A DNA stretch of 58,621 nucleotides, from contig JBDLKA010000010.1 of assembly GCA_039714075.1 (NCBI GenBank), positions 1 to 58,621 of the forward strand, given 5' to 3'. Position numbers: made by a program. Shown here in pieces: positions 30,001-33,000 of this stretch (within the stretch, counting starts at the first letter, position 1; every line of letters starts with the position of its first letter). The DNA comes from Candidatus Krumholzibacteriota bacterium. Its GTDB lineage: Bacteria; Krumholzibacteriota; Krumholzibacteriia; LZORAL124-64-63.

Positions 30001-33000
30001 TGCAGCCGCTGCGGGGCAAACTGCTGCCATTCGGCTGGTTGAAGTTCCTTCTGGGCAAACGGAAGATCGACTATGCGCGCACCATCCTGATGGGCGTTCT
30101 GCCGGAATTCCGCAAACTCGGGGTGGACATGGCCATGGTCTACCAGACCATGCGGGCCGGATTCGCCAAGGGCGTCACCTCGGGTGAGTGCTCCTGGATC
30201 CTGGCCGACAACGTACCCATGAACCGGATCCTGGAGGGATACGGGGCGGATATGTACAAGACCTATCGCATCTACGAGAAACAGGTGGGGTGAAGCCCTC
30301 CGACGGCAGCTCCGGCACCGGTGGTCCGGTCATCGCCCTGACCGGCGCGACCGGGTTTCTGGGCAGCCATATCGCCGACACCCTGTTGGCCCGGGGTTTC
30401 GGTGTGCGGGCCTCGATCCGGCCGACCAGCAGCCTGCGCTGGCTGGACAACAAGCCCGTGGAAACCCGGCGGACCGATCTGACGGACCCCGACGACTGCC
30501 GCGGGTTTTTGGCCGGCACTTCCGGGCTGATCCATTGCGCGGGGGTGGTCTCCGCCCCCGCCAAAACCATCTACCACGTGGCCAACGTGACCAGCACCGC
30601 CCGCCTGCTTGAGGCCGCCGCCGCGGCCTGGAAAGAACAACGGGACACCAAAGCCTTCGTGCTGATTTCGAGTCTGGCCGCACACGGGCCGGCCGGACTG
30701 GAACGTCCCGCCCTGGAATCCGACCCCTGTCGGCCCATCACCGAGTACGGCCGTTCGAAACTGGCGGCCGAGGAACTCGTCTCGGCCGGAATGTGGCCCT
30801 TTCGCACGGCCACCCTGCGGCCCCCGTCGCTGTACGGTCCCCGGGACCGGGAGTTTCTGCCCTTGATCAAATTGGCCACCCACGGTTGGACAGGCCGTCT
30901 CGGGCGCCGGATGACCGGGCTTTCCCTGGTGGATGGGCGCGACGCCGCCGCCGCCGCGGTCGATCTGCTGGAAACCGACGCCGCCTCCGGTACGTTTTTC
31001 GTGGACGACGGCAAAACCGGCTACGACTGGTCCGCCCTGAACGCCGCCCTGGAAAAAATGGCCGGCCGCAGGGTCCGCACCATCCAGCTGCCTTTGGTAG
31101 TGCTGAAGATCCTGTCCTTTCTGGCCGGACGATCCCGGGCCGCCCGGTCACCGGTTCTGAACCGCGACCGGATTCGCGATCTGCAGACCGAAGGCTGGGT
31201 CTGCGACGGAGGCCGTCTGGCGGCGGCCACCGGATTCAGGGCCCGGCGGGACGCCGCCCGGGGATTTGCCGAGACCCTGGATTTCTACCGCGAGGAAGGC
31301 TGGCTTTGAACGTCCGCCGGAAACTGATCGACCTGTCCCTGCGGCGGATGAACATCGACCGCTGGGCCGTGATCTATCTGCTGATCAGCGCCTTCTACCC
31401 GGTTCTCAAACCCTCGGTGTTTCCCGACCCCTGGGCCAACGCCCTGCTGCACGGGGGCCTGGCCCTGTTCATCTGGTTCGTCCCGCCGCTCCTGCGCTGC
31501 AGCAAGCACTTTCTTTTGCGCCTGCTGGGCGAAATCTATCTGCCGTTCATCTTCCCCATGTTCTACGCGGAAATGAAGTATCTGGGCATCATCTTCTTCG
31601 ATTTCGAGAAAAGCCTGGACCCGGCGCTGATACGTCTCGAGGAATGGATCTTCGGGTTCCAGCCCAGCCTGGAATGGTCCCGCGCCTGGCCCTGGCCCTG
31701 GTTCCACGAGCTGATGGAATTCGCCTATTTCACCTACTACTTCCTGGCGGCCGGTTTCCTGCTGCTGGTATTTCGTTCACGCAATCTGGAAGATCACCAG
31801 AGGTGGGAAACGGCGCGGGCCTTCGTCCGGGACCTGAGCCTGACCATGCTGATCTGCTACACCATGTACACCCTGTTTCCCGCCTGGGGACCGAAGTATT
31901 TCCGGGCCGGCTACGTCGAGGTTCCGGGGTGGATCTTCACGGACATCATGCGCCACATCCACGAAAACGGGGCCCTGCTGGGCGCGGCTTTTCCCTCCAG
32001 CCACGTGGCCGCCTCCATGGTTCCGTGGTGGCATACCTGGAGCAACTTTCCCCGCCACCGCTGGTGGATGACCACCATCTTCGTCCTGCTGTGCATGTCC
32101 ACCGTCTACAACCGGTACCACTACGTGGTCGATGTCTTCGCGGGCCTCCTGCTCGGGGGGCTGGTCATGTATTTCGGCCACCGGTTGGGTGATGCGGCGA
32201 GGGATCGCCTGAAGTACCGCCTGCGCTAGGCCGGGGAATGAAAAAGGAGGTGCCTGCAGGGGCACCTCCTTGAAAATTCGTGGTCGCGACCGATTTGCCG
32301 TTGGTCAGGCGAGCCACCGGTTCCCGGCCAAAAAAGCCGAAACTTTCTTGCACCGAGAAAGAAACTATATCACAATTTTTTAAACTTTTCAACAATTTTG
32401 CAGACGCACGGCCGCAGACAGGATCAGCCTCAGGTGAAGCCGCCCGTGCCGCATCCACCGCCGCCGGTAAACCCGCCCGCCGAATCCGACGCCCCGGTGG
32501 CGAAAGCGGAAAAACCTCTCTCGACCTGCCTGGATCCACAGGCCGGACACTTGAACTTCCCGGCCTCGAGTTCGGCCAGGGAAATCAGCTCTTCAAAACC
32601 ATGCCGGCATTTGCGGCAGGTGAATTCGAATAAAGGCACCCGAATACCTCCTGGTCACGGGTAGGCAAGCTATTAACCCTGTTTTTGGTCTTTGGAGTCT
32701 GGATCCGTGCCTTGGTCGGAGTCCTGATCCGGCGATGGTTCCCGGTCACCGACCGAGCAGTTGGCGGGGCCTCAGCCGGGCTGGATGCCCAGCCGGGGAA
32801 ACACGAACTGCACGATGATGAAGTACAGGACCACGAACAGTATGAATTTTTCCATGCGCGGTCCACTCTCCCCGGACCTTCCCGGCCCCCGGTTTCTTAC
32901 ATGCGAAGTTTATTGACTAGTAAAGTAGTACAGAATCCGGCCCTGTCAAGACCCGCTCTGCCGTTCAAAAGGTCCCTTTGACCCAGCCACCGTCCGAAAC

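Follow-up and report, generated by a model that had tools for sequence, protein, structure and literature searches.

A probable family of single-helix membrane micro-selenoproteins, encoded by an uncalled gene in Krumholzibacteriota and matched across many bacterial phyla

The window analysed here is the whole stretch of 58,621 nucleotides (positions 1 to 58,621, forward strand) of contig JBDLKA010000010.1 in assembly GCA_039714075.1, from a Candidatus Krumholzibacteriota bacterium. On its minus strand lies a reading frame, absent from the standard ORF listing of the window, whose in-frame TGA is, judging from sequence, almost certainly read as selenocysteine (Sec) by SelB via an in-frame SECIS hairpin, and which would thus be a real but uncalled selenoprotein gene. 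With equally high confidence its product is predicted to belong to a group of proteins of 45-75 residues with one membrane helix, a Sec just past it and, as a rule, a Cys four positions further. The initial annotation had proposed a new small membrane selenoprotein family at this place, and the proposal is supported by Cys homologues, by the invariance of the codon, by the loss of the hairpin in Cys forms and by co-occurrence with selA; the coordinates of the frame and the position of the TGA at codon 28 were verified. The features are the following.

32673..32855, minus strand: predicted selenoprotein gene, uncalled; 60 amino acids with the TGA read as Sec
32944..32949, minus strand: -35 hexamer of a putative own sigma-70-type promoter, from the pattern TTG[AC]C-N(17-19)-TAnnnT, which 84 of 88 loci of the bacterial family have upstream
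32922..32927, minus strand: -10 hexamer, from the same promoter test
32898..32919, minus strand: operator-like motif just 3' of the -10 hexamer, with core GTCAA-N6-TnG[CA]A, from 66 distinct sites of the bacterial family
32866..32873, minus strand: candidate ribosome-binding site, purine-rich, from the sequence; most relatives are likewise purine-rich ahead of the start
32790..32852, minus strand: predicted single transmembrane helix, residues 2-22 (Kyte-Doolittle, AlphaFold2)
32772..32774, minus strand: predicted Sec codon, TGA, codon 28; TGA in 88/88 loci, in 111/118 loci among the matches listed and in 74/76 loci, otherwise TGC or TGT
32757..32759, minus strand: second Cys, codon 33, of U-x4-C, present in 86 of 88 loci of the bacterial family
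32741..32757, minus strand: SECIS-like hairpin, 7-bp stem with a GGU loop 21-22 nt after the TGA
32676..32741, minus strand: hydrophilic, fast-changing tail; 14-49 residues follow the Sec across the bacterial family
32430..32639, minus strand: FmdB-family zinc-ribbon gene (Cys form; TIGR02605, PF09723), likely second cistron
32965..33777, minus strand: short-chain dehydrogenase (SDR) gene (PF13561), upstream neighbour, probably a separate transcript

The frame opens with ATG at 32855 and runs through 26 more codons to the TGA (32774-32772), then through a further 32 codons to the terminal TAA (32675-32673). The part before the UGA is too short for gene calling, an annotation blind spot. In the databases proteins of the family usually appear in a truncated form of 26-40 amino acids; one database protein is identical to the upstream-extended reading of a locus from the bacterial family (L073). 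The promoter pattern, which recurred in just one of 88 downstream control windows, sits between the SDR gene and the selenoprotein gene, and the spacing of its hexamers is 16 nt in 72 loci, 17 in 11 and 18 in one. Both neighbours are kept, as had been claimed, with the SDR gene directly upstream in 62 of the 88 loci (and once among 79 loci of other phyla) and the FmdB gene downstream in 86, so that the unit in this bacterial family is probably a two-gene transcript of selenoprotein and FmdB, apart from the SDR gene.

In the eight loci of the bacterial family that were inspected the FmdB start lies -1 to 41 nt from the selenoprotein stop, an arrangement which could suit a selenium-sensing leader, in which readthrough of the TGA would adjust how the following gene is translated or terminated, with the peptide itself of secondary importance. 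The tail is poorly conserved, its codon differences among seven loci of the genus being 240 non-synonymous and 60 synonymous, and would fit such a leader too. We nevertheless consider it improbable, since in 37/77 and 28/69 loci the gene that follows is on the other strand, the whole protein is kept in Cys forms, and differences in the helix between seven genus loci show constraint by codon position, with 139 at third and 17 at second positions. The Kyte-Doolittle 19-residue mean of the helix is 2.36, and AlphaFold2, supplied with 72 sequences, places a helix at residues 2-21 with a pLDDT of about 90 and leaves the rest without structure (pTM 0.35). The eight residues before the Sec carry a net charge of +1 to +3 in 88/88 loci of the bacterial family, and by the positive-inside rule for membrane protein topology the Sec would lie on the cytoplasmic side. 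The tail had been called acidic, which holds for the genome under study (G000; net -5) and not across the bacterial family, where the charge ranges from -7 to +4.

Evidence for recoding comes from the behaviour of the codon itself. Of 90 loci fetched from the bacterial family, two weak secondary matches (L094, L095) lack the motif and were left out; in the remaining 88, which come from 87 genomes, TGA is without exception the first stop met beyond the helix motif, as the initial annotation had stated for every match, while the terminal stop of the same loci varies (TGA 42, TAG 27, TAA 19). A DNA pattern with TGN at the Sec codon, which is blind to TAA and TAG, was run on GTDB genomes and gave, among the matches listed, at least 111 TGA, 5 TGC, 3 TGT and 1 TGG; one of the TGT loci and the sole TGG lack the helix and are chance matches. 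For an unforced reading of the codon we took matches ending before it together with other families, in all 76 matches at 75 loci, three of them repeating earlier loci, and found TGA in 74, TGC in one and TGT in one. Neither TAA nor TAG thus stands at the Sec codon in any of 164 unforced readings (88 from the bacterial family and 76 further). Beyond the TGA the frame stays open for at least 14 codons in 88/88 loci of the bacterial family and in 111/111 distant TGA loci among the matches listed, compared with just 65/111 and 55/111 for the other two frames of the latter.

The machinery for such a reading is at hand. The profile search places selA, selB and selD of G000 above their cut-offs, the selD gene itself carrying one TGA, and the genome has one tRNA-Sec(TCA), while selA is found in 200 of 208 Krumholzibacteriota genomes. 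Outside this phylum we compared 50 genomes, namely all 7 with Cys forms and 43 of the at least 111 with TGA forms among the matches listed: selA is present in 40/43 of the TGA-form genomes as against 2/7 of the Cys-form genomes (Fisher p 5e-4, a value overstated by kinship), and the three TGA-form genomes in which selA was not found are ones whose completeness is not given. A conserved in-frame UGA, a bacterial SECIS (bSECIS), selA, selB, selC and selD, and aligned Cys homologues are found together here.

One of the doubts raised earlier was a 27-aa peptide plus an RNA element. The TGA would then be a true stop, terminating a membrane peptide of 26-27 amino acids, with an RNA hairpin or, in another version, a separate re-initiated ORF behind it. 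It is true that 133 of 236 retrieved proteins end at the codon, that ATG directly follows the TGA in many phyla (many loci read TGA-ATG), and that the hairpin of G000 is weak when taken alone. The absence of TAA and TAG from 88/88 and 76/76 readings, although TGA makes up only about 56% of the stops of G000 (1158 TGA, 615 TAG and 294 TAA by a crude count), the existence of fused Cys forms without the hairpin and the link to selA contradict a short peptide with an RNA element, and most loci of the bacterial family have no ATG after the TGA; we hold a true stop to be very improbable. Equally remote, in our estimate, is a reading of the TGA as Trp or as Cys instead of Sec. Sixteen database proteins have W at the Sec place, but TGA is the commonest stop of G000, its one tRNA with a TCA anticodon is of the Sec type, and no TGG occurs among 118 true DNA loci from the matches listed, for which reason the W records are probably TGA codons read with table 4.

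In G000 the hairpin has a free energy of -8.5 kcal/mol as a perfect stem. According to section 5 of PMC13188914, the bSECIS consensus comprises a loop of 3-9 nt with G in its first two positions, a stem of at least 4 bp and a distance of 16-37 nt from the UGA, and the G000 hairpin fits the consensus as given there. We applied a simple test modelled on the criteria in that section (a perfect stem whose loop contains G, at a distance of 16-37 nt), which was passed by 75/88 loci of the bacterial family and, among the matches listed, by 103/111 distant TGA loci and 1/7 Cys loci. Control segments passed less often, namely 29/88 and 18/111 at 60 nt further on, and 34/88 and 28/110 at the terminal stop, the distant counts again being from the matches listed. 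The loop starts 19, 22 or 25 nt past the TGA in 5, 71 and 9 of 85 loci, three having no exact pattern, and the distance from TGA to loop moves only in steps of 3 nt, so that the spacer changes by whole codons. In 28 sequences of the bacterial family the 7-bp stem is 91% paired, as against 24-57% for slid partners, with double changes at four pairs and a covariation score reached by none of 500 shuffles. The claim that the hairpin is kept, with a double change in G000, is borne out: many relatives carry A-U at the changed pair, and G000 carries G-C. Folded in isolation, the G000 segment is no more stable than shuffled versions of it (z +1.12). A similar filter is passed by 4516 TGA triplets of G000, and SelD's own hairpin scores only -2.3 in it; the hairpin has weight only through its fixed position, its covariation and its loss in Cys forms. 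An Rfam search of 32200-33100 returned one chance-level match only. The hairpin also explains much of the S-[IV]-G-D-R stretch, presented earlier as a protein motif: the residues encoded by the hairpin differ between phyla and vary freely elsewhere while the hairpin stays, and the stretch is therefore mostly a by-product of the RNA structure.

The range of the family is wider than first supposed. Within the bacterial family, 88 of the 91 genomes gave a match in the protein search, including all 55 of high quality, in agreement with the presence claimed for nearly all members, and in Krumholzibacteriota as a whole a profile matched 146/208. Two Krumholzibacteriota families have no match (0/7 and 0/23) in spite of selA in 200/208 genomes of the phylum, and Sec competence evidently does not require the gene. 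With a broader profile, even samples gave 111/251 for Desulfobacterota, 45/151 for Acidobacteriota and 23/251 for Planctomycetota, and the TGN-pattern matches listed come from Desulfobacterota groups, Planctomycetota, Acidobacteriota, KSB1, Obscuribacterales, Armatimonadota and Spirochaetes, with Geomobilimonas luticola JCM 17780 (locus L152) as a cultured carrier. By its sequence matches the family is thus spread over many phyla, and its restriction to one bacterial family, as first described, does not hold.

As aligned, the defining motif is a helix followed by [LF]-P-x-[LFM]-G-x(3-4)-U-x(3-5)-C, in which the P and G of the L-P-x-L-G turn are invariant and the distance from U to Cys is 3-5 residues, mostly 4. 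The P-G-U-G-P motif, said to be conserved, was overstated, as it occurs in 28 of the 88 loci of the bacterial family, the commonest ending before the Sec being G-V-P-T (30). The second Cys is present in 86/88 of these loci and in 48 of the 74 TGA loci of a further set that is enriched for weak matches; its absence from the other 26 indicates that a two-residue redox cycle is not universal. Among 236 proteins from two protein searches, besides the 133 that end at the codon, 73 other than the query have Cys at the Sec place (typically P-T-C-M-S-G-x-C), 16 have W, 7 something else, and 6 could not be parsed; the concern that no Cys-bearing homologue existed is removed by these 73. In genomic DNA the Cys codon, TGC or TGT, was seen in 7 loci among the matches listed and in 2 others, and many Cys forms bear extra Cys (CC, CxC). 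We have little doubt that, as the sequences suggest, Cys replaces Sec in lineages without a Sec system.

That the family has so far gone undescribed is, in our judgement, probable. No family in Pfam or NCBIfam 20.0 corresponds to the protein, to 72 members from the bacterial family or to four distant cores; the reported lack of an NCBIfam match extends to Pfam, at E 5 in both. For the 72 members searched against curated NCBIfam and Pfam models the best E is 0.0024, on generic membrane stretches, with none convincing. A PDB profile search found nothing below E 0.67, the ESM Atlas contains no named match and, at 0.88, a cluster of 123 members without a name, which is no more than a lead, and a cluster look-up of 10 homologues returned 'hypothetical protein' together with one AbgT label that was not borne out. 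PMC13188914 (2026), in its accessible part, tabulates 119 bacterial selenoprotein families, with which the protein shares the in-frame UGA, a G-loop hairpin 16-37 nt downstream, Cys homologues, the Sec machinery and a redox-type Sec/Cys pair; none of them matches, the table as available having no U-x4-C motif and, by the names, no single-helix micro-protein, and the protein here is without a folded domain. Similarly, the predicted bacterial selenoproteins KCU-star (NF033934), selenobacteriocin (TIGR04081), dual-CXXC (NF041197) and CC/Se (NF041239) are short and have database forms truncated at the UGA, but their models give no match and their motifs differ according to the same partly available table. 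BSepDB contains 111 families (accessible part of PMC13326102). The portions available of deep-Sep (PMC12013277), of PMC13510729, of the Kivenson preprint (10.1101/2021.03.15.435355), of the gLM2 preprint and of SelCysML make no mention of the family, and no description of it was found in the literature, for which the families of Haft and Tolstoy 2025 were compared through the accessible PMC13188914 table alone. No paper joining 'UxxxxC' with 'selenoprotein' was found. The protein does not fit the thioredoxin-fold selenoproteins (UxxC, CxxU), which have a two-residue spacing, since its own spacing is 3-5 residues and its predicted structure one helix only.

The transmembrane domain of YgaP-like proteins (PF11127, DUF2892) is similar in its small size, in a conserved Cys close to the membrane and in an L-x-x-L-G-[VI] stretch, and a YgaP-like gene is a recurrent neighbour and putatively co-regulated gene of the selenoprotein, but this domain has two helices in place of one, and homology is not supported (hhalign probability 12-13%, exceeded by 2/20 column shuffles). 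Among eukaryotes, SELENOK and SELENOS are selenoproteins that cross the membrane once and have a disordered portion in the cytosol, a Sec near the C-terminus and a 3'-UTR SECIS; both are larger than the protein here, and the likeness in design is an analogy only. The recoding route is standard; the architecture and the breadth of the family are new.

As to function, we propose a membrane-tethered Sec/Cys redox shuttle or trap acting in thiol or sulfane-sulfur stress, a proposal drawn from sequence and gene context to which we would give about an even chance. The helix would anchor the protein N-out/C-in, with the Sec at the cytoplasmic face of the inner membrane, and the protein, having no folded domain, would act as a small redox shuttle or trap. 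Its selenolate would attack an S-S or S-S0 bond (in polysulfide, persulfide or a partner disulfide), the nearby Cys would resolve the adduct to a selenenylsulfide, thioredoxin-type reductants would reset it, and the tail would mainly carry the SECIS. The protein would be made within a thiol/sulfane-sulfur stress response. In the bacterial family a two-Cys ArsR repressor would act on the gene's own promoter and also on a ygaP-like/RND efflux operon, and elsewhere the gene would often be part of arsR, rhodanese, persulfide-dioxygenase-like, tauE or thioredoxin clusters. We regard this mechanism as the most likely because of the neighbouring genes, the promoter motif shared with ygaP-like genes and the two-Cys ArsR.

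For the neighbours we scanned 79 loci of other phyla, covering 150/154 immediate and 59 co-oriented second neighbours, and found rhodanese in 7 (three being metallo-beta-lactamase partners or fusions), ArsR in 6, thioredoxin-like in 6, YgaP-like in 5, RND parts in 4, TauE in 2 and DUF302 in 2; an ECF sigma factor or zf-HC2 anti-sigma factor occurs in 10 of the 79, including all 5 Cys loci with flanks. A further 72 loci (136 neighbours) gave ArsR in 12, largely from related genomes, thioredoxin-like in 4, YgaP, DUF302, DsrE and CMD in 2 each and YeeE-like in 1. In both sets most neighbours are unrelated genes. As 30 carrier genomes with about 158 Mb contain 26 YgaP matches, fewer than 0.1 YgaP-adjacent loci would be expected by chance.

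These same neighbourhoods could suit a metal- or metalloid-binding selenoprotein, in which Sec and Cys would chelate a soft ion (Cu, Zn, Hg, As) at the membrane and pass it to an exporter. Such a binder, which we think unlikely though deserving of consideration, would be in keeping with the ArsR/SmtB regulators adjacent in 6 and 12 loci, with the cation-efflux, HMA/P-type ATPase, MerR, ZnuA and NikR genes also seen among distant neighbours, with the extra Cys of many Cys forms and with the FmdB zinc ribbon downstream in the bacterial family. Sulfur-handling (rhodanese, YgaP, TauE, DsrE, YeeE-like) and thioredoxin neighbours are, however, at least as frequent, and many TGA forms have no second Cys, which suits single-residue chemistry better than a chelate.

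In the bacterial family the proposed link between redox shuttle and sulfur stress would run through the promoter. The ygaP-like gene there heads an operon of outer-membrane, adaptor and RND components near an ArsR gene, and a matrix built from the selenoprotein promoters scores at least 6.5 at 13 of 19 ygaP-like promoters of relatives (19 of 24 loci being scorable). Among 332 promoter-like sites in G000 four reach this score, and two of the four belong to the selenoprotein gene and to ygaP. The nearby ArsR (C31:14366-14767 of G000) keeps both Cys in 23/23 orthologues. In the text available of PMC12344995, E. coli YgaV represses ygaV-ygaP and senses polysulfide, and in that of PMC9774590 BigR and SqrR use two Cys to detect sulfur species; the arrangement here is alike in linking a two-Cys ArsR repressor to a ygaP-like gene, but by its score of 60 bits against the BigR cut-off of 155 (best PDB match Rv0081) the ArsR is not of BigR type. 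With two Cys conserved throughout its orthologues it may still work as that type does. The family operator matrix does not extend to other phyla, where it exceeds 12 bits in 1 of 117 upstream regions.

The shared promoter motif, together with the distant loci that have RND parts (4) or YgaP (7) next to the gene, would also accord with a redox-switched accessory subunit of a membrane protein, either the co-regulated YgaP-like protein or an RND permease, for which AcrZ on AcrB is the model. The conserved surface of helix and L-P-x-L-G turn, with P and G invariant, would be expected of such a subunit. Against it, no single partner is constant among the neighbours and ygaP-like genes were not found in 10 of the 30 carrier genomes, and we judge an accessory subunit rather unlikely.

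Taken further, the redox reading would make this one of the commonest bacterial selenoproteins, a foldless membrane micro-selenoprotein, carried by between one third and two thirds of the genomes in several phyla, whose single Sec beside the membrane captures or passes on sulfane sulfur in the service of a persulfide-stress module under ArsR control and which would be a counterpart of SELENOK and SELENOS in design, missed because its truncated form has fewer than 30 residues; this is a tentative extension, which we put forward with some reserve. If the selenoprotein reading is right, catalogues of bacterial selenoproteins lack a family that occurs in 30-70% of the genomes sampled from three phyla and also in four or more other groups, and the known use of Sec would be widened to a reactive residue on a bare membrane anchor instead of an enzyme fold. 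The many natural SECIS variants and Sec/Cys pairs could serve for testing bacterial SECIS rules, and the protein offers a small, easily made substrate for asking about Sec in the handling of polysulfide or thiol stress.

The operator-like motif also resembles the IHF consensus. A match to it before a second ArsR gene (contig C17 of G000) was rejected, being kept in 1 of 7 scored orthologues. Matches also occur before an MsrB-like gene and a nap-like gene.

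The operator-like motif that lies just after the -10 element of the selenoprotein gene promoter is also present in the promoter of a ygaP-like operon, one of three loci with ArsR genes considered here in G000, the genome of the window:

Contig C31, 6098-14767 (L354): a ygaP-like gene, then genes for an outer-membrane protein, an adaptor and an RND permease.
Contig C17, 46495-49782 (L355): a second two-Cys ArsR, heading a gene pair for a 4Fe-4S protein and a membrane subunit.
Contig C42, 13340-14555 (L356): an ArsR gene, then a gene for an arsenite methyltransferase-like methyltransferase.

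At the first of these, ispH and a two-Cys ArsR are oriented divergently to the ygaP-like/RND operon, and the spacing from the ygaP-like gene to this ArsR is about 1.5 kb in many family genomes. In G000, selD is found 6 kb from the same locus; selA is present in 200 of the 208 Krumholzibacteriota genomes and in every one of the high-quality subset (125/125). The second two-Cys ArsR is preceded by a peroxiredoxin-like gene; of 45 further genomes sampled from the family, 7 yielded close orthologues. The methyltransferase at L356 looks like an arsenite methyltransferase and, within the portion of its sequence examined, contains Cys and lacks an in-frame TGA.

Among homologues of the selenoprotein with a Cys codon at the Sec position, those of Planctomycetota have a zf-HC2 anti-sigma gene immediately upstream (L127, L129, L132, L144, L183 and L283), and in four of these six loci a cytochrome bd subunit I-like gene is located downstream.

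Around the selenoprotein gene itself the window holds further elements:

32405-32425 (approximate), minus strand: a short GC-rich hairpin immediately 3' of the fmdB stop.
32364-32392, minus strand: a strong promoter-like site (10/12, with TG) after fmdB.
32244-32271, minus strand: a terminator-like hairpin about 100 nt further.
33800-33930 and 35600-35760: two similar stretches either side of an M61-like peptidase gene.

The GC-rich hairpin, found again in many family loci, may be a transcript end. No gene lies between the promoter-like site and the terminator-like hairpin; since such a site occurs 3' of fmdB in 12 of 82 family loci, some of them with an extra gene after it, it may represent a remnant or a small RNA. 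The stretches flanking the peptidase gene are in opposite orientation, a similarity which suggests a repeated intergenic element, and an identical shadow translation begins at 33874 and at 35600.
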